NCBI GenBank assembly: GCA_039208585.1
Contig: JBCCQX010000004.1
Coordinates: 52,031 to 116,030 of the forward strand
Reading direction: 5' to 3'
DNA: 64,000 nt
DNA from: Pseudomonadota bacterium
GTDB lineage: Bacteria > Pseudomonadota > Alphaproteobacteria > Rhodobacterales > Rhodobacteraceae
Both the position numbers and the translations under genes were made by a program. Of the stretch, positions 1,710-56,634 are shown one piece after another. A model generated the notes under the pieces. It did no database searches and was not told the DNA's origin. It saw only the letters and a list, made by a program, of their open reading frames with translations. Numbering within the stretch: position 1 is the first letter of the stretch; every line of letters begins with the position of its first letter.

Positions 1710-2993
1710 ATGAAAGAAGACGGGCAAGACCGCAAAGTTCTGACAGTGTCTTACGGCGCATTTTCCTGTACGCTTGAAGGGTTTGACGAACCTATTGAAG
1801 CGCTCAAAGTCGTCACGGAGTATTTTCGTGAGCTCAGCGCACGCGATCAATATTTCGCGTCCGAGCCGCAAAAACCAGATCAAGGATCCCTATCCAAGGT
1901 GGTCCAAGAGGAAGAGAAGAAAGACATCACGCTGCAAGAGAAAAACGGCGAATTGGTGTTAACGGCGCGCAACGCATCGGATCCGGCGGTCGCGCAAACA
2001 GATGCGCCGGAAGCTGCAGAGCCTGAAACGCAGACCGAGAACGCGCGCACGCCAGTCGAGCGGCAGACCACGATCGTCGCGGGGCAGTTAGATGCCGAGG
2101 TTGAGGCATTTTTCGCGGGCAGCAGCAATGACGCGGAACCGCCGAACCCTGCGCAAGGCGCCCCCACGACAGCAGATCCAGAAACACCGGCTACCGCATC
2201 AGAAACTGCGCGCCAACCAGAGGCGACGCTCGAAGAAAAGCTGGCGCGCATTCGCAGTGCCGTGGCGGACAATGACGCGGGCACCGCCGAGCAGCCAGAA
2301 GGGGATGCCGAGGTAAAACTCGACGACGTGCCACCGGATGTGATCGCCAAAGCACGCGCCCTGGCTGAAGCGATGGACGATGAAACAGACGTGATCGAGA
2401 ATATCTTTGAGGATGTGCCCAGCAAACCGTTTGCGCCGCCTCAACAAAGCGCGGGCAATGATCAGCAGGCAACGGCGGAAACACCGCCCTCAGATCAAGC
2501 AGCCTCGTCCGCGTCGGCAAGCGCTGCGGCTGCAAAAGCCGCGCGGCAGAAGACTGCGTTGCGCAAACCACCGAAAGTGCAGCCTTATCTTGAGCTTGCC
2601 CGGCCGACCATTGACTTTGGCTTTTCAAAAAAGCCCGTCGCCGGCGCTTCCAAGCCCGCGCAAAAGGCATCTGCTGACAACGCCGCCATTCAGACGGAGC
2701 CCGCTGCTGATCAGGAAAAATCAGAAGAGGCTGAGCAAGAGATATCGCGGCTGGTAACGCAAACGAACCAGCAAATGACCGATGAAACGCATCAAGATCG
2801 TCAGGATGACTTCGAACATCTGCGCGCCGCTGCTGCCGTGCAAGAGACGTTGCCGCCCCCAGGAGATAACGATCAGGACGAGGCGCTCTACCGCGCGGAT
2901 CTTTCGGCCGCACTAGAGGGGAAGGCAGAGGTTGCATCGATGCCACTGCTGCGTCTCAGCGAAGAACAGCGTGTCGATACCGCGTCCGCGTAA
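1710..2993 (+). CDS. Hypothetical protein: short ordered N-terminal domain, long acidic Ala/Pro/Glu/Gln-rich low-complexity linker, short helical C-terminal motifs
   Basis: 427-aa ORF with ATG start. The N-terminus 'VLTVSYGAFSCTLEGFDEP..EYFREL' resembles a Rhodobacteraceae conserved hypothetical family (recalled, not searched). Confidence 0.75.
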   Translation: MKEDGQDRKVLTVSYGAFSCTLEGFDEPIEALKVVTEYFRELSARDQYFASEPQKPDQGSLSKVVQEEEKKDITLQEKNGELVLTARNASDPAVAQTDAPEAAEPETQTENARTPVERQTTIVAGQLDAEVEAFFAGSSNDAEPPNPAQGAPTTADPETPATASETARQPEATLEEKLARIRSAVADNDAGTAEQPEGDAEVKLDDVPPDVIAKARALAEAMDDETDVIENIFEDVPSKPFAPPQQSAGNDQQATAETPPSDQAASSASASAAAAKAARQKTALRKPPKVQPYLELARPTIDFGFSKKPVAGASKPAQKASADNAAIQTEPAADQEKSEEAEQEISRLVTQTNQQMTDETHQDRQDDFEHLRAAAAVQETLPPPGDNDQDEALYRADLSAALEGKAEVASMPLLRLSEEQRVDTASA

Positions 2994-3012
2994 GCGGTAA
3001 AGGCGGAAGCGC

Positions 3013-3202
3013 TAAAGCATTTCGAGTTAAACCTGGATCACTTGTTCGCTGCCTCTCCCTACGGTCAAACGCGAAAAGTGATAAATGATGGCTCAAGTTA
3101 AACTCGAAAAGCTGTAGGGGTGGAACGGCGCAACTCAACAGGGCCGGTTGGGCGAGACGCCGATAGGGACGGGTTGTCTCAGGTTTAAGGCCGCGTGCTT
3201 TA
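3013..3202 (+). mobile_element. MITE-like element, copy 1
   Basis: Terminal inverted repeats TAAAGCA-N7-TTAAACCTG at both ends (3013 and the reverse complement ending at 3202), TA at both boundaries, internal GGAACGGCGC..CAACAG core shared with the other copies. Confidence 0.75.
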
Positions 3203-3373
3203 ACCTGAAACCAAAGTGCTGCATCTTCCCATGGTCGAACGCGCTTTTGACGCCAAGTCCTGCAAGGAAACGTGCGGTAAACCCACCAATCTCCCCCACC
3301 ATCCATCTGCGGGCGATGGGCTGCTGGTCAGCAGCCAGCAAGGCGCCGGCACAACACCTGGCGGGGCGAAGCG

Positions 3374-4279
3374 CTAGCGGCCCAGGCAGTGGCGCATGAT
3401 GGCCTTTTGCGCGTGAAGCCGGTTCTCTGCCTCGTCAAAGATCACGGAATGCTTTCCATCCATGACTGAGCTGGTCGCCTCATCCTCGCGATGCGCGGGA
3501 AGGCAATGCATGAAGAGCGCGTCCTGCTTGGCACGGGCCATCAGCGCATCATTGACCTGATAGCCGCGCAACTGGTTGTGCCGTCGTTCGCGCGCCGATT
3601 GCGGATCATGCATCGACACCCAGGTGTCCGTGACCACAAGATCGGCGTCGCGCACCGCCGTCTCAGGATTTCTTTCGATGCGGTAGAGCCCCTGTAGCGC
3701 AGGTTCGGGATCAAGCGGGGGTGGGCCCGTGAATGTCAGGTCAAAATCAAATTGCCGTGCCGCATGGGCGAAACTGGCGAATACATTGTTGCCGTCCCCA
3801 GACCAGACCACCTTTTTGCCTTTGATGGGTCCGTTGTGTTCTTCGAAGGTCATGATATCCGCCATGATCTGGCAGGGATGAGTGCGGTTGGTCAGACCAT
3901 TGATCACCGGCACACTGGCGTATTCGGCCATCTCAAGCAATGTCTGTTCCTCGAACGTGCGGATCATGATAAGGTCAACATAGCGGCTGAGAACGCGGGC
4001 GGTATCTGCGATCGTCTCGCCGTGGCCCAATTGCATATCCGTGCCAGAAAGCACCATGGTCTGCCCCCCCATCTGGCGCACGCCGACGTCAAAACTGACC
4101 CGGGTGCGGGTCGAGGGTTTCTCGAATATCAGCGCCACCATGTGGTCTTTGAGGGGCTGTTCATCATCGGGGGCCCCTTTGGGGCGCCCCTGGCGCGCGG
4201 CCTTCATGTTGAGTGCTTGATCAATGATCTGGCGCAAGGCGGGTTTGGGCGTTTGGTCAATGTCGATAAAATGCGTCAT
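3374..4279 (-). CDS. argF: Ornithine carbamoyltransferase
   Basis: STRTR, HPCQ and FMHCLP motifs. Start trimmed to the ATG at 4279 (MTHFIDID). Confidence 0.97.
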
Positions 4280-5771: not shown

Positions 5772-6680
5772 ATGTTTGAAGCGAAAGCACAAAATAACGC
5801 CTTGGCCGCACTGTTGATCGTGATTGCCACCGCGTTTATTGCCGCGACAATGCTATTTGCCAAGGCGCTGAGCGATGCAACCGTTGGTACACCGCTGCAT
5901 CCTTTGCAAATCAGCCATGGGCGGTTTGCGTTCGCTTTTCTGGGGATCGCTGCTGCGGCAGCAGTGGTTCGGCCAAGAATATCGATGCCGCACTGGGATC
6001 TACATGTGGCACGCACAGCCTGCGGGTGGGCGGGATCGACCCTGATGTTTGCCTCTGTGGCTTTCATCCCCCTGGCGGATGCCACGGCCATTTCTTTTCT
6101 CAATCCCGTCTTTGGCATGATCTTGGCGATCCCGCTGCTGGGCGAGCGCGTGGGTCGCATCCGTTGGGCGGCAGCGCTGCTGGCACTCAGCGGGGCATTG
6201 ATTTTGCTACGACCGACGCCGGAGAGCTTTCAACCGGCCGCGCTTTTGGCGTTGGGCGCGGCGATGATCATGGGGCTTGAGCTGAGCTTCATCAAAAAAC
6301 TGGCGAGCCGCGAAAACCCCTTTCAGGTGCTTTTGGTCAATAATTTCCTGGGCCTGGTGATCGCCAGCATCGCGGTGATTTTCGTTTGGCAGGCACCCAA
6401 CAGCATGCAATGGCTGCTCTTGATCGCCTTGGGTCTGTGCATGGCCATTGCGCAAGCCTGTTTCATCAATGGGATGGCACGGGCCGATGCCAGCTTTGTG
6501 GCGCCTTTCAGCTATGCGACATTGATCTTTGCGGCGCTCTATGACGTCGTGTTTTACGGATTTCTACCAGATGCGATCAGCCTTTTGGGCGCGGGCATCA
6601 TTGTCGCTGGCGCTGTGATGTTGGCACTACGAGAAGGCCGCCCAAGGCCAACGCATCAACCGCATAACCAGCGGCTTTAA
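5772..6680 (+). CDS. DMT/EamA family transporter
   Basis: Multiple TM helices in two EamA repeats ('LLGERVG..RW', 'APFSYATLIFA'). Start trimmed to the ATG at 5772. Confidence 0.9.
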   Translation: MFEAKAQNNALAALLIVIATAFIAATMLFAKALSDATVGTPLHPLQISHGRFAFAFLGIAAAAAVVRPRISMPHWDLHVARTACGWAGSTLMFASVAFIPLADATAISFLNPVFGMILAIPLLGERVGRIRWAAALLALSGALILLRPTPESFQPAALLALGAAMIMGLELSFIKKLASRENPFQVLLVNNFLGLVIASIAVIFVWQAPNSMQWLLLIALGLCMAIAQACFINGMARADASFVAPFSYATLIFAALYDVVFYGFLPDAISLLGAGIIVAGAVMLALREGRPRPTHQPHNQRL

Positions 6681-10563: not shown

Positions 10564-10807
10564 AAGCAGCGATAGAACGTCCCAAACATCTCGGCAGCAG
10601 CATCTCTGTTGCCGCGAAGGGAAAGGTCCCGGGTCATGCCCGGGACGGCGTCAGCACCACGCGTCGCGACAATTTCCATCAACCGCTGACACATTCCGTC
10701 ACGAAAGCGACGCCGCACTTCACTTTGGCGTGTGAGTGACATGTTGGCGGCTACGCGCCTGATAAAACTGAGGTATCTAAGATCAAGCAAGAGAAGAAAG
10801 CGTTGGC

Positions 10808-27765: not shown

Positions 27766-27795
27766 CAAAAAAGGCCCCGGACTTGATCCGGGGCC
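27766..27795 (-). terminator. REP-like hairpin acting as a probable rho-independent terminator of rpsA
   Basis: Minus strand reads GGCCCCGG-ATCAAGT-CCGGGGCC followed by TTTTTT, 25 nt after the rpsA stop. Same unit as the repeats at 51186 and 57817. Confidence 0.7.
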
Positions 27796-45983: not shown

Positions 45984-46493
45984 ATGGCCGATTACCCAAC
46001 GCAGTTTGACAAAGAGGGGTTGCTAAAATGCGCGCGCGGCGAACTTTTCGGCCCCGGCAATGCGCAGCTGCCCGCACCGCCCATGCTGATGATGGACCGG
46101 ATCACCGATGTTTCCGCCGACGGGGGCGCGCATGGCAAAGGTCACATCGTGGCGGAGTTCGACATCTCACCCGATCTGTGGTTTTTCGACTGTCATTTCC
46201 TTGGCAACCCGATCATGCCGGGATGTTTGGGGCTGGATGGCCTTTGGCAGTTGACAGGCTTTAACCTGGGCTGGCGCGGGTGGCGGGGGCGCGGATACGC
46301 GCTTGGCGTAGGAGAGGTGAAGCTGACCGGGATGGTGCGCCCAGATCGCAAGTTAGTGACCTATAAGATCGATTTTACCAAGGCGATCCAGACACGGCGT
46401 TTGACCTTGGGTGTCGCCGACGGGATCGTGGAAGCTGACGGCGAAATCATCTACCAAGTCAAAGACATGAAGGTCGCGCTGAGCGAAAGCTAA
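45984..46493 (+). CDS. fabA: 3-hydroxyacyl-ACP dehydratase/isomerase
   Basis: [31 protein letters not shown] motifs. Confidence 0.96.
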
Positions 46494-46636
46494 CACCTTC
46501 GCCCTTAAAGCTGGTACACTCCGACTCTATGAGCGTCCTGCCCAACAGCTTACGCTGGGCCGCGCCGTTCCGCCCCCACGGGGCGGCGCTAAGTCGGTTT
46601 GGGCAAGGGATCTTGGGTTCAAGACCGGATGCATTA
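46491..46636 (-). mobile_element. MITE-like element, copy 7 (inverted)
   Basis: Reverse complement reads TAATGCA-N7-TTGAACCCAAGATCCCTTGCCCAAACCGACTTAGCGCCGCCCCGTGGGGGCGGAACGGCGCGGCCC; the other TIR starts at the fabA TAA stop. Confidence 0.78.
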
Positions 46637-46736
46637 ACCCGCCAGCGTTTCCAGCGGCGTCTCCCTCGACGTCGATGCTCTGCGCATCCCTAAAGCAGCT
46701 CTAGATATTCGCGCGACAGCCCAAAGGCCGCACACT

Positions 46737-48428
46737 TTAACCGCGCAACTGAGAGAGCTTGGGCATCAACTCAAGCAGTTGGGACGTGTAAGGATGCTGA
46801 GGGTCGGTGAATAAATGCTCGGTTTCCTGCACTTCGACCAATTGGCCTTGCCGCATGACACCGACGCGGTCGCACATCTGGCGCACCACGGGCAAATCGT
46901 GGCTGATGAACAGCATGGTAAGACCCAGATGCTCTTGCAGATCTTTCAGAATATTCAGGATCTGCGCCTGGATTGAGACGTCAAGCGCGCTGGTCGGCTC
47001 ATCGCAGATCAAAAACCGCGGCTGCGTCGCCAAAGCCCGCGCGATCGAGATACGCTGACGTTGACCACCGGAAAATTCATGCGGGAATTTTTGCCAGGCA
47101 TCCTTGGCCAAGCCCACCCTGTCCAGCAACTCGCGCACGCGCGGCGCAACCTCTACGCGCGCCAGCAGTTTGTGATGGAGCAGCGGTTCAGCCACGATAT
47201 CACCCACCTTCATGCGCGGGTTGAGGCTTGAGAAGGGATCCTGAAAGATCATCTGAATTTGACGGCGGTAGCGCGCAAGGCCGCGAGTGTCCATCTTGGT
47301 TACGTCTTCTTCGTCAAAGAAAATCTGCCCCGCGTCCACCTGGTGAAGAGTGGCGATCATGCGCGCCACGGTCGACTTGCCAGACCCGCTTTCGCCCACC
47401 AAGCCAAAAACCTCGCCGTCCCGGATGTGGAAAGAGACATCGTCCACCGCGGTGAAATAGCGCCTTTGCGATGGTAGGAGAGAGGACTTTTCAATGAAGC
47501 GCTTGGAGATCCCCCGGACCTCAACCAGCGTCCCACTTTTCGACCGTTTGGTTTGATCCCAGTTGCGCGCCAGATCTTCGATTTTGAAAATCGTATCCCG
47601 CCCGCCATAGCTGACCTGCGGGAACCGCGCGACCTTTCGGTGGGGCCGCGGCACGGCGGCGATCAGGGACCGCGTATACGCATGGGTGGGCGCACCGAGG
47701 ATCTGCGCGGTGGTGCCACTTTCCACAACTTGGCCCGCATACATCACCGTCACCTGCTCTGTCGTATCGGCGATCACCCCCATGTCATGGGTCACAAGGA
47801 TCACCCCCACCTGTCGCTCGACCGCGAGTTCTTTGATCAGGTCAAGCACCTGCGCCTGGATTGAGACGTCAAGCGCGGTCGTTGGTTCGTCTGCGACGAT
47901 CACCGAGGGTTCCGAGCACAGCGCCAGCGCGATCACCACCCGTTGCCGCATGCCGCCAGAAAACTGATGCGGGTACTGATTGAACCGTTCTGTCGGATTG
48001 GGGATCGACACGCGGTCCAGCAAGGCAATCGCGCGCTCTTTTGCCTCGGCCGCGCTGACACTTAGATGCAGTTGGATCGTCTCAACCAATTGCTCGCCCA
48101 CCGTAAACAGAGGGTTGAGAGAGGTCAGCGGGTCCTGAAAGATCATCGCGATCTCTTTGCCGCGAAGCCGCCGTTTCTCTTCGGCACTCAGGTGGTCAAT
48201 CCGGCGTCCGCTCAGCCACACCTCGCCCTGAGCAATGCGCGCGGGCGGGTCCAGCAGGCCGATCACCGCATTGCCCGTCATCGATTTGCCCGCCCCGGAT
48301 TCCCCCACGACGCCCCGGATTTCCCCAGGACGGATTTCATAGCTGACGTCTTGCACGGGCCTAACAAGACCGTGCCGCGTTGGTATTTCAACGGTCAGAT
48401 CACGAATAGAGAGGACGGGATGTGTCAT
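46737..48428 (-). CDS. Peptide/nickel-type ABC transporter, fused double ATPase (DppD/F-like)
   Basis: Two Walker A motifs (GESGAGKS, GESGSGKS), FSGGMRQR/FSGGQRQR signatures and DEPT motifs. Confidence 0.95.
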   Translation of the reverse strand: MTHPVLSIRDLTVEIPTRHGLVRPVQDVSYEIRPGEIRGVVGESGAGKSMTGNAVIGLLDPPARIAQGEVWLSGRRIDHLSAEEKRRLRGKEIAMIFQDPLTSLNPLFTVGEQLVETIQLHLSVSAAEAKERAIALLDRVSIPNPTERFNQYPHQFSGGMRQRVVIALALCSEPSVIVADEPTTALDVSIQAQVLDLIKELAVERQVGVILVTHDMGVIADTTEQVTVMYAGQVVESGTTAQILGAPTHAYTRSLIAAVPRPHRKVARFPQVSYGGRDTIFKIEDLARNWDQTKRSKSGTLVEVRGISKRFIEKSSLLPSQRRYFTAVDDVSFHIRDGEVFGLVGESGSGKSTVARMIATLHQVDAGQIFFDEEDVTKMDTRGLARYRRQIQMIFQDPFSSLNPRMKVGDIVAEPLLHHKLLARVEVAPRVRELLDRVGLAKDAWQKFPHEFSGGQRQRISIARALATQPRFLICDEPTSALDVSIQAQILNILKDLQEHLGLTMLFISHDLPVVRQMCDRVGVMRQGQLVEVQETEHLFTDPQHPYTSQLLELMPKLSQLRG

Positions 48429-48554
48429 CGTTCGCTGTATTTCAACCTTGATAAACTATGTCGAGCTAGTTATGTCAGAAGAGGCAGAGAAAAGCAGCAG
48501 GTGCGCCCATGAAAACGTCGTTTCCGCCCATCGTTATCGTATAACTGAGCACTG

Positions 48555-49226
48555 TTACGGCGCATCGCACTTGGCAAGAGCGATCGACCGGTCCAAAGCC
48601 TCAAGTGCGCAACGGGCAGCATAAGTGGCTCTCTTGCCCTCTTCAAAATACGCTTCAATGACCTGTTTTCGCTTTGAGATGTCCTTTTTCTCAAACAGCC
48701 CAGCGGTAAACGCTTTGATCAGTTCAACCACGTATTCATCCGCTTGATAATACTTGATCACAGGCGCGATTACATCTTCCGGCAGATCCGCCAATTCGTC
48801 CTTGATATGGTCAAAGACGTCATTCTCTTTCGCAACCACGCCGATTGGCATCGAATGCTCTGCGCGTTTTGCATTTTCAACGCCAGCGATCAAAGCCTGC
48901 TTGCGCGTTGCCGCCGTGCCACCCTCAAATTGAGCGATGTAATTTTCAAGCTGCATCGAAATCTCGGCCCGAATTGCCACCAGCAACCGGCGTTGGCGCG
49001 CATGACGACGCTCATCTTCTCTGCGCTTCTCCCAGGTGATGCGCAGGTTCCAGAGCATAACTGCCCCGATCAACGCCACGATATAGCCGCTCACACGGAT
49101 AAGATCGGACGCGTAAGTGGTCGCGAATGCGGTCATGGCGCCGCGATACTCCACCAAAACGATGAAGGCAGCCAGACACAACAAAAGCACGGCAAGCGCG
49201 CCAAATCCTGACGAGGCCGACCTCAT
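48555..49226 (-). CDS. Orphan membrane protein (2 N-terminal TM plus helical domain) inside the ABC operon
   Basis: ATG at 49226 overlaps the permease stop (ATGA); two hydrophobic helices followed by charged 'EKRREDERRHARQRR'. Confidence 0.7.
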   Translation of the reverse strand: MRSASSGFGALAVLLLCLAAFIVLVEYRGAMTAFATTYASDLIRVSGYIVALIGAVMLWNLRITWEKRREDERRHARQRRLLVAIRAEISMQLENYIAQFEGGTAATRKQALIAGVENAKRAEHSMPIGVVAKENDVFDHIKDELADLPEDVIAPVIKYYQADEYVVELIKAFTAGLFEKKDISKRKQVIEAYFEEGKRATYAARCALEALDRSIALAKCDAP

Positions 49227-50191
49227 CTTAACCTGGGGTTCAGCGCATCGCGCAGCCAGTCGCCCAGTAGGTTCACCGACAGTGCCAACGCCAGCAAAGT
49301 GCAGGCGGGGAAAAACAAGATCCACCACTCGCCTGAAAACAGAAAACCCTGGCCGATGCGGATCAATGTGCCCAACGAGGGCTGGGTGGGCGGCGCGCCC
49401 ACGCCCAGAAAGCTCAGCGTTGCCTCTGCAATGATCGCCAGCGCGAGGGAAATCGTGGCGATCACCAGCACCGGAGACAGCACATTGGGCAGAATGTGGC
49501 GCACCATGATCGCCAAGGGTCTGCGCCCGATGAGTTGAGCGGCGGCGACATAATCTTTGCTCTTTTCGACCAGCGTCGCCCCGCGCACGACGCGGGCAAA
49601 CTGCACCCAGTCAGACAGCCCGATGGCCAGGATCAGCACCCAAATCGCCATTTGATCGCGGTATTCAACCGGCGTGATGCCTTTGGCGATGCCGAAGATC
49701 AGCATGGCAACCAAGATGGAGGGGAAGGTCAACTGCACGTCTGCCGCACGCATAATGATGGTTTCGGTCCAGCCGCCGATGTATCCCGCCAGCAGCCCGA
49801 GGATGATGCCCAGCACCATCGCAAACAGCACCGCCGCCACGCCAACAAACAGCGATATGCGCATGCCGTAGAGAATGGTCGAAAACACGTCACGCCCTTG
49901 ATCATCTGTGCCGAACAGAAAAATCTCCCCCGTGAAGGCGTTGGGCGCCATGGGGGGAGTGAACCCGTTCATCAAGTTCAAGCTGGCCGGATCGAATGGG
50001 TTCGTCGGCGCAATCAACGGTGCCAAAATAGCCGAGAATACCAGCAATGCCGCCACCCCGGCAGAGATGAGGGCAACGGGGGATCGGCGAAACGCATAAA
50101 ACACATCGCTGTCTAGCGCCCGCCGAAGCGTGGACGGCATCTTGTGTCCCTCTTCCACCATGGGGGTTTGCGGAACGGGTTGGTCCGTCAT
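49223..50191 (-). CDS. ABC transporter permease (DppC-like)
   Basis: GTDDQGRDVFS, EAA-type loop 'DYVAAA...G', RHILPN and GDWLRDALNPR motifs. Confidence 0.95.
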   Translation of the reverse strand: MTDQPVPQTPMVEEGHKMPSTLRRALDSDVFYAFRRSPVALISAGVAALLVFSAILAPLIAPTNPFDPASLNLMNGFTPPMAPNAFTGEIFLFGTDDQGRDVFSTILYGMRISLFVGVAAVLFAMVLGIILGLLAGYIGGWTETIIMRAADVQLTFPSILVAMLIFGIAKGITPVEYRDQMAIWVLILAIGLSDWVQFARVVRGATLVEKSKDYVAAAQLIGRRPLAIMVRHILPNVLSPVLVIATISLALAIIAEATLSFLGVGAPPTQPSLGTLIRIGQGFLFSGEWWILFFPACTLLALALSVNLLGDWLRDALNPRLR

Positions 50192-51159
50192 GGTCGCGTC
50201 ACCCGCAATCTTGGATCAATGAAGGCATAGAGAATATCCACCAGCAAATTGATCAGCACGAACATCACCGAAATCAGCATCAGATAGGCAGCCATCACCG
50301 GTATATCCACGAATTGAATCGCGTTGATAAACAACAGGCCCAACCCTGGCCACTGAAAAACCGTCTCTGTGATGATGGCGAAAGCAATGATCGCGCCCAA
50401 CTGCAGCCCGATGATGGTGATAACGGGGATCATCGTGTTCTTGAGCGCGTGGCGAAAGTTGATCACCCGGTCGCTTAACCCGCGCGCGCGCGCGAAACGG
50501 ATGTAGTCTTGGCGCAATACCTCCAGCATTTCGGACCGCACCAGACGCATAATCAGCGTCATCTGATACAGGCCCAGGGTGATCGACGGCAGCACCAGAG
50601 CTTTCAAGCCACTTTGCGTCAGCAAACCCGTGCTCCAACCGCCAATGTCAACCAGATCACCGCGCCCAAAGCTGCGCAACCACCCTAATTCGACGGCAAA
50701 GACGTAGATCAGCAGAATGCCGATCAGAAACGTGGGCAGAGACACGCCAATCAAGGAAACCGACATGATGAGATTGGCAACAAACCCGTCGCGCCGAATG
50801 GCTGTGAAGACACCCAAAGCAATGCCCAGGACCACGGCAAAGACGGCTGAAACGGCGGCGAGTTCCAGGGTGGCGGGTGCCCGTTCCAAAATGATTTCGG
50901 ACACCTCGCGCCCCTGACGGTAGCTAACGCCGAAATTCCCCTCGATAGCGCCCTGTAGAAAGCGGAAATACTGAACTGGAAACGGCTGATCGAGGCCGAG
51001 TTGAACGCGCAAGCGCTCCACATCTTCTATGGTGCGCTCTTGACCGAGCATGTTATCAATGGGATCGCCCACAAAGCGAAACATCGAAAACGCCACCGCC
51101 CCCACGATCAACAACACGAGCACGGACTGGCCGATCCGCCGAATGATGAATGACAGCAT
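50188..51159 (-). CDS. ABC transporter permease (DppB-like)
   Basis: GNFGVSYR, PATLELA, 'QDYIRFARARGL', HALKN, ETVFQWPGLG and DPRLR motifs. Confidence 0.95.
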   Translation of the reverse strand: MLSFIIRRIGQSVLVLLIVGAVAFSMFRFVGDPIDNMLGQERTIEDVERLRVQLGLDQPFPVQYFRFLQGAIEGNFGVSYRQGREVSEIILERAPATLELAAVSAVFAVVLGIALGVFTAIRRDGFVANLIMSVSLIGVSLPTFLIGILLIYVFAVELGWLRSFGRGDLVDIGGWSTGLLTQSGLKALVLPSITLGLYQMTLIMRLVRSEMLEVLRQDYIRFARARGLSDRVINFRHALKNTMIPVITIIGLQLGAIIAFAIITETVFQWPGLGLLFINAIQFVDIPVMAAYLMLISVMFVLINLLVDILYAFIDPRLRVTRP

Positions 51160-51185
51160 GGCGCCTCCTTTTCAGTGCCTGCGCA

Positions 51186-51245
51186 GCCCCGGGCTTGACC
51201 CGGGGCCTCCCGGCCGCCCAAGAGGTCCCGGGTCACGCCCGGGAC
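51186..51245. repeat. Paired REP-like palindromes (family C)
   Basis: GCCCCGGGCTTGACCCGGGGC (51186-51206) and GTCCCGGGTCACGCCCGGGAC (51225-51245). Confidence 0.75.
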
Positions 51246-51267
51246 GGGTCTCGCTTAGGTTTACCGC

Positions 51268-51489
51268 AGTCTATCGTGACACACCGTAAGATAAAGAAGT
51301 TATCGGGTCGCTGCACCATATTGGTACTCAAGCACGCACCACACACCAGAGGTTGCACGTAGAGCGTCACGAGGCGACCTTTCCCTGTAGGATCTTCGCG
51401 GCATCGTACATCGCCTGGCGCTTCACCGCGTCGATCTCAGAGTGGATCATCGGTAGCAACTCATCAATGCGCGCATTCGCATACAGGTT
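51268..51489 (-). pseudogene. 3' remnant of a second family-5 ABC substrate-binding protein gene
   Basis: Translates as NLYANARIDELLPMIHSEIDAVKRQAMYDAAKILQGKVA, then after a 1-nt frameshift VTLYVQPLVCGA...VQRPDNFFILRCVT. This resembles family-5 SBP C-termini; no start or 5' part is present. Confidence 0.78.
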
Positions 51490-51545
51490 TAATTAAGTCT
51501 TTTTTCAATACACTTGATATTGCCAATTCACAAATAACCCTCGCA

Positions 51546-53450
51546 TCATCTTTTTCTGCGCGTTATTCTATTTTCCCCAGCCGTCTGCGGGATCTCTTCA
51601 TTTGGACGAACTGTTTGCTCTTCCTCTTCAGCTAAAGCGCACATAGAAGAGCTTGCCCAACGGGATTTATCACAGGCAAACGTTAAAGTTCCCAACACGA
51701 CCCCCAAAACGGTTGCTAGAACCAGAACCCAATTTGTAAATTTAATCTGCTGACGCCTTATCTCCGATGCAAGACTCTCGAGCCTTCCATTAATGCGTTG
51801 AATGAAAACTGACTGCCCTTCCACGAAGGCAAATGTTGCGTATAGCCTTCGTCTCATGAGCTCTTGATATGACTGATAACCCGGTATTTTCCCTTCGTTT
51901 AAGTCACCGATCCGCTCTCGATAAGAGCGGGCGTAGTAAGTGGATCGAGCGATCCGGTATTGTAGTCCCCCAACAAGCATTCTCTTCCCATTTTTGCGCT
52001 GTTCGCTGTCAGGGTCGCCGTATATCGCGTTAAAGACCTCCTCATCTGCAAAACCAGTCTCCTCTATTTTGCGAAGTTTCGCAGAAAGTTCTCTATAATT
52101 CTGGGCAAGTTTCAAAGCGCCTCTGGGGGAATCGAGTGCTGCAATCGTCTCTTTTTCAAGTTCCTCCATTTCATATTTTGCATGATATAGTCTCGGAAGC
52201 TGCCGTACTGCCATCAATCTTAAGGTACCGAGCGAAAACAGACGAAAAAGTAGACGGCTCAGCTGCCAAGGGTCCGTCAGACTCGACGCCTTCATCAGCG
52301 TGAGGGGATTTCGTGTTTCACCCGTGTTTTCAACCGCTTCAAATCCCAGAGAGGATACGTATAGCACAGATTGATTTAAGAACGTTGCCGCAACAATTTC
52401 AGATTTACCTTCGTCGTGACGCGCATTGGCCCATATAGGTCGATACTTACTAAGCTCGTTCGCAACAAACTCATCCGCAAACAGACTCTTTTGAGATGCT
52501 GACCCACGAGCTATTGCTTCAATGCCAGGCAACTTTGCACGTTGATAATGAAATTTGTGCCGGTTGTCTTTTTGACGCTGGCCTGCTTCTTCTGACGGCT
52601 CATCAACGGTCTGTAATTCAACTTTTGGGAATTTAGCTTTTGGATGCTGAGGCGACACGAGGCGAAAATCGCCAAAATACTGCAGCGAAGCTTTTCTGGA
52701 CACAGGAGCCAATAAAGCAGAGGCGCCACCACCGCTGTGGCTTTGCTTATGTAAAGATGCATCAACTTTCTCCCAAATTTCTTCAAACAGTATCTTACGC
52801 AGGCATGCGTTATCCTCTGGCGCTGGTTTAAGGTGAGGCACATCGCGCACACCCATAAGATACTGAAGCTTCGATGCAATCTCTGAGTTATAACCGAGCC
52901 GATAGAACATATCTGTGTTAAAAGGTAATTCGATGATTTGCGTCATCGTCATGTATTCACCGAAGATATCGCCGCGTAAAAGCAGACGCAGATGATATGC
53001 ATCCTGATCGGTAGGCAGGTGGTCGCAGCGATGCTCTGGCGGCAAAGCATCGTTTTCATTGTATTTTATCGGCGCGCCGTCCTTGCCAAAGGGGATCGGG
53101 ACGGGATGCGAAAGATACGGCTTTGAAATGCGCAAATGCGCTGGTCGATCCCCTAATTTATTGTTATTGCTTGCTGGAAGCGACAAATCTGGGTTGGCAT
53201 CGAAAATCCACCTATCCTGCGTGTTGTCGCTTAGACAGGAAGGGTCACAAGCCTTTAGTAAATTTTGAAAAGCGACAATACTTTTTAAAACTTTGTCTTT
53301 CGAATTTTCAAGTTCTTCGCTTGGAACGAACGAGATATGCCTGCCTAAAAGTGGCCCGGCTAGCCACGGATACACACGACGATGGGTTTCCCTGTGTATC
53401 TCATTGTAATGCGCGATTGGTTCGAAATAGTGCTTCGAGGGATCATACAT
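51546..53450 (-). CDS. AT-rich orphan; C-terminal third resembles DUF3422 membrane proteins
   Basis: 634-aa ORF; 'RLLFRLFSLGTLRLMAVRQLP' and 'YRIARSTYY...RIGDLNEGKIPGYQSYQELMRRRL' are followed by a C-terminal TM. G+C is 24/60 at 53221-53280 versus 38/60 in fabB at 55501-55560. Confidence 0.75.
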   Translation of the reverse strand: MYDPSKHYFEPIAHYNEIHRETHRRVYPWLAGPLLGRHISFVPSEELENSKDKVLKSIVAFQNLLKACDPSCLSDNTQDRWIFDANPDLSLPASNNNKLGDRPAHLRISKPYLSHPVPIPFGKDGAPIKYNENDALPPEHRCDHLPTDQDAYHLRLLLRGDIFGEYMTMTQIIELPFNTDMFYRLGYNSEIASKLQYLMGVRDVPHLKPAPEDNACLRKILFEEIWEKVDASLHKQSHSGGGASALLAPVSRKASLQYFGDFRLVSPQHPKAKFPKVELQTVDEPSEEAGQRQKDNRHKFHYQRAKLPGIEAIARGSASQKSLFADEFVANELSKYRPIWANARHDEGKSEIVAATFLNQSVLYVSSLGFEAVENTGETRNPLTLMKASSLTDPWQLSRLLFRLFSLGTLRLMAVRQLPRLYHAKYEMEELEKETIAALDSPRGALKLAQNYRELSAKLRKIEETGFADEEVFNAIYGDPDSEQRKNGKRMLVGGLQYRIARSTYYARSYRERIGDLNEGKIPGYQSYQELMRRRLYATFAFVEGQSVFIQRINGRLESLASEIRRQQIKFTNWVLVLATVLGVVLGTLTFACDKSRWASSSMCALAEEEEQTVRPNEEIPQTAGENRITRRKR

Positions 53451-53470
53451 TTAAATCAAAAATTCATGCA

Positions 53471-53499
53471 AAGAGGGCGGCGCATGTCGCGCGCCGCCC
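53471..53499 (-). terminator. Probable intrinsic terminator after the SBP gene
   Basis: Minus strand reads GGGCGGCGC-GCGACAT-GCGCCGCCC then TCTTT, 7 nt after the stop. Confidence 0.7.
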
Positions 53500-53506
53500 A
53501 AATATC

Positions 53507-55087
53507 TTAGTTCATCGTGAAATATTTCACCTTTGGCTGATCTTCAGGATCAACCTCGATGCCGACACCGTCCGCCATGCCCCAGTTCAGAACTTGGTGG
53601 TGGATCGGGATGTAAAGCGCTTCATCCTGCACCACGCGCCAGATCGCTGCGATATCTGCGTTGCGCGCATCAAGGTCGGTGTTGGACGCCAGTGATTTGA
53701 TCTTGGCGTCAAGATCATCGTTGTCAAAACCGGTTCCGTTCCACGTGCCGATGTCGCTTTCGCGGCCATGCACCAGGAAGTTGAACACATATTCCGAATC
53801 GTATGTCGGCACGCCCCAACCCAGCATGTAGAAATCAGTTGCCCCATTGGTGATCTTCGGGAAATGCTGCGCTTTCGGGATGGCATCAAGGTTCACTGTG
53901 ATGCCGATCTGACCCAGCATGCCCACGGCCGCCTGGCAAATCGCCTCGTCATTGATGTAGCGATCATTTGGGCAGTCCAATCGGATCGAGAACCCATCGC
54001 CATAGCCTGCCTCGGTCATCAGCGCCTTGGCGGCATCGATGTCCGTGCTGCTCTCAGCGTCCATCTCAGCGGTCCAACCGTTCACGAAGGGCGGCGCGAT
54101 CATGCCGGCAGGCTCAGACTGACCCCGCATCACGACTTGCTGGATAGCATCGCGGTTGATCGCCATGGACATTGCCTTGCGCACCCGCACATCCGCGAGC
54201 GGGTTGGCACCGTCGACATTGTCTGCCTCGATGTCATCCGGGCCCTGGTTCATGCCGAAAAAGATCACCCGGTTCTGAGGCGCCTTTTTGACGACCAAAC
54301 CGTCCGCCGCGTCAACGCGCTGCAAGTCTTGCACGGGCATGTCTTGCAAAAAGTTCACCTCGCCCGACAACAAGGCCGCAACGCGTGTCGCCGCATTTTG
54401 GATCGGGGTGTAGATGATTTCCGTCACCTCCATCGGGAATTGATCGCGCCCCCAATACTCCTCGTTACGCTCCATCACGGTACGCACATCTGGCTCACGG
54501 CTCACCAGTTTATACGGCCCTGTCCCATTGGCATTGGTCGTGGCAAAGGTAATCTCGCCGCCTTCGAAATCTTGCACGTTCACCGTGTCATTCGCCTCGG
54601 TCCAGCCCTGATCCATGATGAACAGATTGGTCAAATTCGATGGCAAAATCGGGTTGGGCCCGTCGGTCACCATCTCGATGGTGAAATCGTCAACCGCGCG
54701 CACCTCGGTGATTGAACCGATCAATTCCTTCATGTCCGAATTTGGTTGTTTTGCCCGTTCAAAGCTAAACACGACGTCCGCCGCGGTGAATTCGGCACCG
54801 TCATGGAATGTCACCCCTTGGCGCAGGTTGAAGACCCAGACATTTGGATCATCCGCGCTGGGTGCCCAATCTGTGGCCAAGGCAGGCTCAAAAGCACCGG
54901 TCGTATCGCGGATGATCAGCGGTTCATACATTTGGTGGCGGATCGTATGCGTCGGCCCTTCGTTTTGTGCATGCGGATCGAGCGTCAGCGCGTCACCCGC
55001 GCGCGCCCATCGCAGCGTCTCGGCATTTGCCAGCGCCGTCGTTGACAACAGCGCAGCGACCGTGAGCAAACCAGTCAATTTAGTCAT
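53507..55087 (-). CDS. ABC transporter substrate-binding protein, family 5 (DppA-like)
   Basis: Signal peptide; TLDPHAQNEG, 'W.FNLRQGVTFHDG', GTGPYKL and RVRKAMSMAINR motifs. Confidence 0.95.
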   Translation of the reverse strand: MTKLTGLLTVAALLSTTALANAETLRWARAGDALTLDPHAQNEGPTHTIRHQMYEPLIIRDTTGAFEPALATDWAPSADDPNVWVFNLRQGVTFHDGAEFTAADVVFSFERAKQPNSDMKELIGSITEVRAVDDFTIEMVTDGPNPILPSNLTNLFIMDQGWTEANDTVNVQDFEGGEITFATTNANGTGPYKLVSREPDVRTVMERNEEYWGRDQFPMEVTEIIYTPIQNAATRVAALLSGEVNFLQDMPVQDLQRVDAADGLVVKKAPQNRVIFFGMNQGPDDIEADNVDGANPLADVRVRKAMSMAINRDAIQQVVMRGQSEPAGMIAPPFVNGWTAEMDAESSTDIDAAKALMTEAGYGDGFSIRLDCPNDRYINDEAICQAAVGMLGQIGITVNLDAIPKAQHFPKITNGATDFYMLGWGVPTYDSEYVFNFLVHGRESDIGTWNGTGFDNDDLDAKIKSLASNTDLDARNADIAAIWRVVQDEALYIPIHHQVLNWGMADGVGIEVDPEDQPKVKYFTMN

Positions 55088-55404
55088 AAGTGCCTCCCCT
55101 TAGGCTTTGTGAGCATTGATTCTCATCGACAGAGGATGCCCAGCCGCGCCGGGACATCAAGCGGAAAGGTCGTGTGGCGCATCGCGACCGCTTCGCACCA
55201 CCAGAACACGCGCAGCGCCCACACAAGATGCAATACGCATGAGATCAATCCGTCGAACACAGCAGCATCGGTATCAAGCAGTCGCACCACCGTCACGCGA
55301 TGAAAAGAACCGCGGCTCCGCCGAAAAGGCGCCCAAACCAATCGTCTTGCGCCCCTGCGCCCGGATACCCTACATAGGCGCTGTGCATTAAAGGAGTGCT
55401 GCGC

Positions 55405-56634
55405 ATGCGTCGCGTCGTCGTCACAGGCTTGGGCATCGTCTCATCCATCGGGAACAACGCGGCAGAGGTGGTGAACGCGCTGCGCCTGGGGCAGAGCGGT
55501 ATCGAAGCCAGCGATGAGATGGCCGCCCATGGATTTCGTAGCCAGGTCGCGGGCACCCTCAAAATCGATGTCACCGAACACATCGACAAACGCAGCTTGC
55601 GCTTCATGGGGCCGGGCGCCGCCTATTCTCACATCGCGTTGCAGCAGGCCATCGCCGATGCGGGGTTGAGCGACGCGCTTGTCAGCCATTCGCGTACCGG
55701 ATTGGTGGCGGGCTCCGGCGGGCCGTCCACCTCGGCGATGAAAGCGGCCCACGACATCGTTGATCGCACCGGTGCTACCAAACGCATCGGTCCCTTCGCA
55801 GTACCCAAATGCATGTCGTCGACAATCAGCGCGAATCTCGCGACCGCCTTCAAGGTGAAGGGCATCAACTATTCCATCACCTCTGCCTGTTCGACGTCGC
55901 TCCACTGCATCGGCAATGCGGCCGAGCAGATCATGTTGGGCAAACAAGACGTGATGTTTGCGGGCGGTGGCGAAGAACTGGACTGGACGCTGAGCTGTCT
56001 CTTCGACGCGATGGGCGCCATGAGCAGCAAATTCAACGACACGCCGCAACGCGCCAGCCGCGCTTTTGACGCAGACCGTGATGGGTTTGTGATCACCGGC
56101 GGCGGCGGCATGGTCGTTCTGGAAAGCCTTGATCACGCCCGCGCCCGGGGGGCGAAAATCTATGCTGAGATCACCGGCTTCGCAGCAACCTCTGACGGAC
56201 ATGACATGGTGGCCCCTTCTGGCGAAGGCGGTGCGCGGGCGATGCAACTGGCGCTTGGCACGCTGCCCGAGGGGCGCAAAGTAAGTTACATCAATGCCCA
56301 TGGCACCTCAACGCCCGTGGGCGACGTCCCCGAGATCGAGGCGGTGCGCCACGTCTTTGGTGCGGGTGATACGCCCCCGGTGAGCTCGACCAAGTCGCTC
56401 ACAGGTCATGGTCAGGGGGCCGCTGGCGCGATGGAGGCGATCTTTTGCCTGCTGATGCTGGAGCATGACTTCATCGCACCTTCCATCAACGTGGATAGGC
56501 TGGACCCTGCGCTTGACGCGGCCGAGATCGCAACGCAGCGCGTTGACAACGCTGGGCTCGATTCAGTGATGACCAACTCTTTTGGGTTCGGCGGTACGAA
56601 CGGGTCGATGATCCTTTCCAAATTCACGGGGTAG
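55405..56634 (+). CDS. fabB: Beta-ketoacyl-ACP synthase I
   Basis: RRVVVTGLG, SACSTSLH, NAHGTST, KSLTGH and NSFGFGGTN motifs; AAGGAG Shine-Dalgarno. Confidence 0.95.
   Translation: MRRVVVTGLGIVSSIGNNAAEVVNALRLGQSGIEASDEMAAHGFRSQVAGTLKIDVTEHIDKRSLRFMGPGAAYSHIALQQAIADAGLSDALVSHSRTGLVAGSGGPSTSAMKAAHDIVDRTGATKRIGPFAVPKCMSSTISANLATAFKVKGINYSITSACSTSLHCIGNAAEQIMLGKQDVMFAGGGEELDWTLSCLFDAMGAMSSKFNDTPQRASRAFDADRDGFVITGGGGMVVLESLDHARARGAKIYAEITGFAATSDGHDMVAPSGEGGARAMQLALGTLPEGRKVSYINAHGTSTPVGDVPEIEAVRHVFGAGDTPPVSSTKSLTGHGQGAAGAMEAIFCLLMLEHDFIAPSINVDRLDPALDAAEIATQRVDNAGLDSVMTNSFGFGGTNGSMILSKFTG

Follow-up and report, generated by a model that had tools for sequence, protein, structure and literature searches.

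We describe gene X, which encodes a protein of 634 residues in a 64,000-nucleotide stretch of a Rhodobacteraceae contig (JBCCQX010000004.1 of assembly GCA_039208585.1, positions 52,031 to 116,030 of the forward strand; this whole stretch is called the window below, and coordinates refer to it). We read the gene as an old accessory passenger of an ATP-binding cassette (ABC) importer operon, a long-form member of the DUF3422 family that is exchanged between lineages as divergent alleles and acts as an autonomous membrane effector. We give this reading as a whole a probability of about 0.55. Its identity and evolutionary parts are well supported; that the protein might be a signal-gated oligomeric membrane effector or channel is a guess, and taken by itself we consider it doubtful. 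The features of the gene and its product on which the argument depends are the following.

51546 to 53450, minus strand: gene X, encoding a long-form DUF3422-like protein of 634 amino acids (GC content 0.47; GC content at third codon positions, GC3, 0.446; Pfam PF11902 match).
52929 to 53402, minus strand: N-terminal region (residues 17-174), homologue of the canonical DUF3422 N-terminus, in which HRETHRRVYPWLAGPL corresponds to ELHARPFP and DIFGEYMTMT to EQHTEFVTYT.
51675 to 52460, minus strand: core DUF3422 module (residues 331-592) with a three-stranded sheet, a helical bundle and a stalk helix, from hhalign, AlphaFold2 and the family alignment.
51672 to 51728, minus strand: single predicted C-terminal transmembrane (TM) helix (residues 575-593), VLVLATVLGVVLGTLTFAC, from hydropathy, followed by a 41-residue tail of low confidence.
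53475 to 53499, minus strand: GC-rich hairpin with a 10-bp stem and a 5-nt loop, GGGCGGCGCG-cgaca-UGCGCCGCCC, native to the 3' end of the gene for the first substrate-binding protein (SBP1).

A preliminary description of the gene had noted two DUF3422 motifs in its C-terminal part, and the relationship is real. The PF11902 model matches X with 33.9 bits (gathering cut-off 25; E = 2.5e-8), its best stretch aligning residues 496-558 with profile positions 259-321, and X is found also by a whole-genome search for the DUF3422 family; the two motifs noted are residues 398-418 and 498-536 (nucleotides ~52259-51843). A canonical DUF3422 alignment of ~430 residues was built from the genomes of relatives and compared with X by profile-profile alignment in hhalign. 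The global alignment has a probability of 99.2 and E = 1.3e-18, and both halves of the protein match when aligned locally: the N-terminal part (residues 17-174 against canonical positions 12-98) with probability 70.7 and E = 3.8e-5, and the C-terminal part (residues 331-592 against 125-387) with probability 97.6 and E = 2.8e-12. The canonical motifs ELHARPFP and EQHTEFVTYT correspond to ETHRRVYP and DIFGEYMTMT in X, and the invariant motifs of the core module are YVSSLGFEAV, DPWQLSRL, LGTLRL, YRIARSTYY and GYQSYQELMRRRL. The whole of X is thus collinear with the canonical 430-residue protein and enlarged by insertions. The ~400 N-terminal residues first described as unassignable are indeed unassigned by Pfam, but the profile-profile comparison assigns them to the N-terminal region of DUF3422. 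The further proposal that a novel, sensor-like N-terminus is fused to a DUF3422 tail fails on this full-length collinearity and on the recurrence of the architecture in 431 representative clusters (see below).

The canonical family (PF11902; COG4949, "uncharacterized membrane-anchored protein") and X are alike in their full-length order and in having a C-terminal membrane anchor. Corresponding canonical and X motifs include ELHARP and E[TA]HRR, HTEfxTYT and FGEYMTMT, and the arginine-rich helix RIGRIVQRL and QLSRLLFRL, while DFR and YRxxxxxxY...GxQxFxEFMxRR are common to both. X is ~200 residues longer, with insertions at residues ~85-150, 175-255 and 270-330. Whereas canonical proteins typically have 420-450 residues and a two-helix membrane hairpin, X has one TM helix. 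X and its close clade, defined below, have lost the YYxG membrane motif, and a hydropathy scan shows one TM helix in every member of the clade and two in canonical copies. The genes differ in distribution as well: X is GC-poor and sporadic, whereas a search of 31 relatives found the canonical gene in 20, and in 18 of the 19 congeneric genomes among them. The same genome also carries an ordinary DUF3422 gene of 427-445 residues on another contig (C22, L004).

The long form is a family in its own right. A HMMER search of 1.84 billion representative proteins gave 431 clusters at E <= 0.001, nearly all of them 600-750 residues long; the matches of ~420-445 residues in this search, considered as canonical DUF3422 proteins, are instead fragments of long forms. 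A full-length alignment of eleven long-form proteins has 20 invariant residues (P33, DFR261-263, E351, Y364/S366/G369, W395, R399, G408, R411, R499/R502/S503/Y505, Q526/Y528 and R534/R535), and several of these, namely P33, DFR261-263 and E351, belong to the N-terminal half. X belongs to this family by its full-length alignment with the invariant residues and as a GC-poorer single-gene insert; at all 12 family loci examined the GC content of the gene is below that of its flanks, by 4-18 percentage points. Members of the wider family usually have two C-terminal hydrophobic helices and lie in varied, unrelated neighbourhoods, whereas members of the close clade of X have a single TM helix and occur only in one slot of one ABC operon. 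At seven wider-family loci the gene is solo in unrelated surroundings, which suggests a protein acting on its own. One of the seven belongs to an integrative conjugative element and has SIR2-HerA and an Mrr nuclease for neighbours; a second is surrounded by TCAD9, caspase and NADase-type genes; a third adjoins a phage-type lysozyme gene and an open reading frame (ORF) of 2332 residues; and the remaining four have ordinary neighbours with housekeeping or metabolic roles, for instance uvrA, secA and ftsJ. A word-indexed homologue search with a 26-sequence profile returned four close proteins only and added nothing; two scans of metagenome contigs and one of viral contigs gave no confirmed relative, and a scan of genome contigs added one locus, L007.

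Gene X differs from its surroundings in composition. Its frame is intact over 634 codons from an ATG start, its GC content is 0.470 compared with 0.574 and 0.592 in the 5-kb flanks, and its GC3 of 0.446 compares with 0.67-0.76 in the adjacent ABC and fab genes, so that the low G+C reported at the outset is confirmed. The hairpin stands directly after the SBP1 stop codon and has a folding energy of -23.8 kcal/mol (z = -3.3). The ATG of X had been described as lying shortly past a terminator-like hairpin without a Shine-Dalgarno sequence, and this holds: the distance is 24 nt, and the start has no Shine-Dalgarno sequence. The start codon lies 9-25 nt beyond the SBP1 hairpin in four close-clade loci, and equivalents of the hairpin trail SBP1 in relatives both with and without X. 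Because the hairpin occurs in the same place in relatives that lack X, it belongs to SBP1, and because a gap of 9-25 nt leaves no promoter space for X, the gene is probably transcribed by read-through from the SBP1 promoter. No convincing repeats, direct or inverted, were found at the ends of the insert, and no integrase or transposase adjoins gene X; a classic transposon or integron cassette was ruled out by the lack of convincing terminal repeats.

Six members of the close clade of X are known (the window, L001/L045, L002, L003, L007 and P0006), and the clade is monophyletic with 100/100 support against seven proteins of the wider family. The context can be seen for five of the members, and each of these lies in the orthologous ABC operon, four at the identical junction behind SBP1. 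The order in L007 and L003 is SBP1, hairpin, X and the gene for a second substrate-binding protein (SBP2); in L002 it is SBP1, hairpin, X and then LrgAB; and in L001/L045 it is SBP1, SBP2, hairpin, X and then the permeases. Orthologous operons of five congeners are without X and read SBP1-SBP2-permeases or SBP1-permeases. The distribution of X is very sparse: among 113 species of the genus a single one carries it, 400 other genera of the family have no copy, and the long form occurs in one of 401 genomes across the class, which is the window itself. The atypical composition and this sparse distribution support the foreign or accessory status of X, which had been described as a horizontally acquired gene. 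Other close-clade frames are intact at 646-694 codons. Two local observations concern single loci. In L002, a contig of a metagenome-assembled genome (MAG), lrgA-lrgB (2617-3400; murein hydrolase regulator or pyruvate transporter type) replaces SBP2 and the permeases after X. In L007 the X homologue is split into frames of 214 and 440 residues by a frameshift in an A8 run (L007 10600-10620), which could be a sequencing error of this MAG, a real pseudogene or a slippage-prone tract.

The alleles of X in this slot have diverged far more than the genes around them. They are 28-52% identical, compared with 86-94% for SBP1 and 81-88% for the permeases; nonsynonymous divergence (dN) is 0.65-0.71 for X and 0.05-0.16 for the flanking genes, whose synonymous divergence (dS) of 0.9-1.7 is saturated, and branch lengths in the trees are 0.5-1.1 for X and 0.04-0.09 for SBP1. 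Since dS of the flanks is saturated, an identity of 30-50% among X proteins does not by itself require separate acquisitions, and the low identity is compatible with one old insertion followed by protein evolution at 10-20 times the rate of the neighbours. Recent independent insertions from different donors were considered and downgraded in view of the monophyly of the clade, the identical junction and the saturated dS. Close-clade X genes have a GC3 of 0.41-0.64 compared with about 0.7 in the neighbours at the window locus, and X has remained GC-poor although its divergence is such that neutral sites should have come to equilibrium; this lasting AT-richness may either be selected or result from divergent alleles escaping recombination-associated GC enrichment.

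An alternative is that X has no function and is what remains of an old horizontal transfer, drifting towards loss. Such a remnant would be GC-poor with a high dN and a very sparse distribution, as X is, one copy (L007) carries a frameshift, and the arrival of X or a later deletion destroyed SBP2 in the window while the operon was retained. The frames speak otherwise: that of X is intact, as are those of other clade members, despite amino-acid branch lengths of ~1 per site; ~100 positions do not vary in the close clade, nor do 20 across the long family, and these cluster in the canonical DUF3422 motifs; and the frameshift in the A8 run of L007, a MAG, may be a sequencing error. We regard a decaying remnant as quite improbable.

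The history of X also conflicts with that of the gene in front of it. The SBP1 tree pairs the window with L007 (99/99), and the alternative pairing of L007 with L002 is rejected by the approximately unbiased test (p-AU 0.009), although this is the weaker of the two tests since SBP1 of L002 is partial (160 residues). The X tree pairs L007 with L002 (100/100) and rejects the pairing of the window with L007 (p-AU 6e-7). The groups for both tests were named after the trees had been seen. Strictly vertical descent of X was ruled out by this conflict, the simplest reading of which is that recombination in the conserved flanks has swapped X alleles among lineages. One SBP1 clade of X-bearing operons is not rejected (p-AU 0.089), and on these trees a single origin of the X-bearing operons is possible.

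The operon in the window belongs to a PepT-type (peptide/nickel/opine class) ABC importer and is ordered SBP1, hairpin, X, SBP2 fossil, palindrome resembling repetitive extragenic palindromic (REP) elements, permease 1, permease 2, ORF257 and a fused ATPase. Its parts other than X and the hairpin are as follows.

53507 to 55087, minus strand: SBP1, intact family-5 substrate-binding protein of 526 amino acids and first gene of the operon (Pfam SBP_bac_5, E = 9.5e-89; orthologues 83-92% identical).
51269 to 51483, minus strand: SBP2 fossil, the last 73 codons only, frameshifted (tblastn against SBP2 of L001 and L007).
51188 to 51243, no strand assigned: GC-rich, REP-like pair of palindromes that separates the SBP2 fossil from the first permease gene.
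50188 to 51159, minus strand: permease 1, DppB/NikB type.
49223 to 50191, minus strand: permease 2, DppC/NikC type.
48555 to 49226, minus strand: ORF257/223, rare accessory gene with two N-terminal TM helices and a helical domain (GC3 0.61).
46737 to 48428, minus strand: fused double ATPase, DppD-DppF type.

The SBP2 fossil lies downstream of X and matches SBP2 of L001 and L007 in two frames (tblastn E = 2e-19 and 2e-17). X stands where most of the second SBP gene was; the earlier statement that it occupies the place of a lost SBP gene is therefore correct for SBP2, SBP1 itself being intact. In the closest congener (L026, G011:C9, 5634-7200) the SBP2 orthologue aligns as two pieces abutting at 6311/6313, which suggests a frameshift, and some other congeners have no SBP2, so that the second binding protein seems generally dispensable.

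The REP-like palindrome CCCGGGCTTGACCCGGGGCC forms the inverted pair at 51188-51243 and has more copies at 10625-10644 and 27776-27795, giving four matches in the window compared with 0.01 expected. The ATPase part of the operon is mosaic: the window, L007 and G063 have a fused double ATPase of 563 residues (81-82% identical), and L001, G011, G012, G019 and G002 have two separate ATPases that are only 48-63% identical (L001 14733-16690). The whole 8.6-kb operon, including X, sits between fabA and fabB (window 45984-56634). In congeners fabA, fabB and fabI are adjacent, with gaps ranging from 122 nt to about 1 kb or more, and their orthologous operon is found on another contig, which indicates that here the operon came as a unit, by relocation or acquisition, to lie between fabA and fabB; this spacer looks like a variable spot within the genus.

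The constancy of the slot invites a different explanation, namely that X is a lineage-specific accessory or regulatory component of the importer, possibly together with ORF257. It could, for example, serve as a cytoplasmic gate or safety valve that is anchored in the membrane and linked to the transported substrate, perhaps a metal (Ni or Co, the best matches being NikA-like). The five close-clade loci with visible context are all in the same operon, co-oriented and without separate promoter space, which could mean a tie to the transporter, and the slot has been kept across a divergence that saturates synonymous sites. ORF257 is translationally coupled to permease 2, its ATG overlapping the permease-2 stop codon (ATGA). 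Its GC3 is 0.61 compared with 0.70-0.76 in its neighbours, and among 5.8 billion proteins it has one other cluster (55% identity), from the L001/L045 lineage and in the same position. It is seen in the window locus and in that lineage only, and both lineages carry X. The SBP and the permeases match nickel/peptide-type models best, and CorA-family channels, with which X is compared below, carry Mg, Co and Ni. However, every NCBIfam match of the transporter genes is below its cut-off, and a metal substrate is not firmly indicated; most orthologous operons have neither X nor ORF257, and those of at least five congeners work in this form; X precedes SBP2 in four loci and follows it in one; L007 has X without ORF257; members of the wider family are solo genes in unrelated contexts; and a subunit would not usually diverge in protein sequence 10-20 times as much as the transporter genes. 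We consider a role as transporter component unlikely. As an observation on ORF257 itself, its helical domain is cytoplasmic and has a weak, sub-threshold resemblance to holins and 2TM effectors.

Structure prediction gives some indication of what an autonomous protein of this kind may do. The AlphaFold2 model of full-length X, computed from an 11-sequence alignment, has a predicted template-modelling score (pTM) of 0.69 and a mean predicted local distance difference test score (pLDDT) of 67.6, and that of residues 326-634 has a pLDDT of 77.9 and a pTM of 0.64. The full-length model combines two regions of beta-sheet with a bundle of helices and a helix of 85 residues (528-612) whose end forms the TM segment; the predicted cytoplasmic part of ~570 residues thus leads into a long stalk helix and then a lone membrane anchor at the C-terminus. 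The terminal TM helix of the preliminary description is confirmed by hydropathy as one helix, with the long predicted helix before it. Foldseek searches of 350,542 PDB chains put CorA at the top for the full-length model and for the C-terminal one, with chains from T. maritima, E. coli and C. jejuni. The CorA/MIT channels for Mg2+, Co2+ and Ni2+, such as those of T. maritima and E. coli, have an outline like that of X, with a cytoplasmic alpha/beta domain, a helical bundle and a C-terminal stalk leading into the membrane. Foldseek of X against the viral structures of BFVD found nothing.

We interpret X as an autonomous effector for which the evidence on descent and the predicted outline of the protein are combined. 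One ancient insertion of X into the ABC operon would have been followed by fast evolution of the protein and by swaps of alleles through recombination in the conserved flanks. X would be transcribed by read-through from the SBP1 promoter across the attenuator-type hairpin, and its product would act autonomously and not as a subunit of the transporter. The protein may form an oligomeric membrane effector or channel with a CorA-like outline, in which the arginine-rich cytoplasmic domain would sense a signal and the stalk and TM helices would alter membrane permeability in response, the likely setting being conflict (with phage or mobile elements) or stress. The guess of a signal-gated effector or channel derives from the arginine-rich conserved motifs in the cytoplasmic sheet and bundle, the long stalk helix, the membrane anchor and the evolutionary signature taken together.

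Besides the limits of the tree tests and the constant operon setting, several results weigh against this interpretation. The CorA matches are not significant (E 0.06-0.8, probability <= 0.69, TM-score <= 0.28), the G[MIV]N (GMN) motif is absent from X and from 13 relatives, and X has one TM helix where CorA has two. A search of PDB sequences with the X profile gave chance matches only, with no solved CorA among them. The earlier suggestion of a possibly CorA-like protein has in its favour that CorA is the top structural match for both models. A CorA-like outline is a fair description of X as modelled, while membership in CorA/MIT fails on two defining features. That X is a genuine CorA/MIT-type divalent-cation channel, as the first rank of CorA among all PDB chains might be taken to mean, is extremely improbable in view of the insignificant scores, the missing signature, the single helix and the lack of sequence similarity.

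A role in defence, for which X had been put forward as a candidate on account of its architecture, is likewise affected by results on either side. Two of the seven wider-family loci are in conflict-type surroundings, and these contexts weakly support a conflict role; the other five are among other genes, mostly housekeeping, and the close clade, in each of the five loci where the context can be seen, occupies the ABC operon and not a defence island. No model of PADLOC (PADLOC-DB 2.0) or PHROGs matches X or 10 relatives, no NCBIfam model matches X, and the full-text library searched yielded no paper mentioning DUF3422 or PF11902. We nevertheless prefer the reading of X as an old, exchanged passenger that acts on its own at the membrane, at the probability given at the outset.

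DUF3422/COG4949 is a widespread family without assigned function, and the locus described here offers a clean natural experiment, with one monophyletic enlarged clade held at a single operon junction in several lineages. The combination of a fast rate, lasting GC-poverty and a conflicting history is a pattern typical of conflict genes and of few others. Speculating further, the long-form, GC-poor DUF3422 genes might constitute an undescribed class of single-gene conflict cassettes, that is, membrane effectors that work alone, carry their own cytoplasmic sensor, have a CorA-like outline and persist for long periods in fixed chromosomal slots as hyper-divergent, swapped alleles; we think this generalization is probably wrong. 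If it were true, such cassettes would hitch-hike on the transcription of host operons, here from behind the SBP1 hairpin. X itself is a compact and testable candidate, being a single gene with a defined insertion point and with natural X-less operons available for comparison. For the biology of the operon, the locus would illustrate how a passenger may be expressed by read-through of the attenuator hairpin of a substrate-binding protein gene, and passenger insertion of this kind can cost an operon its second binding protein.

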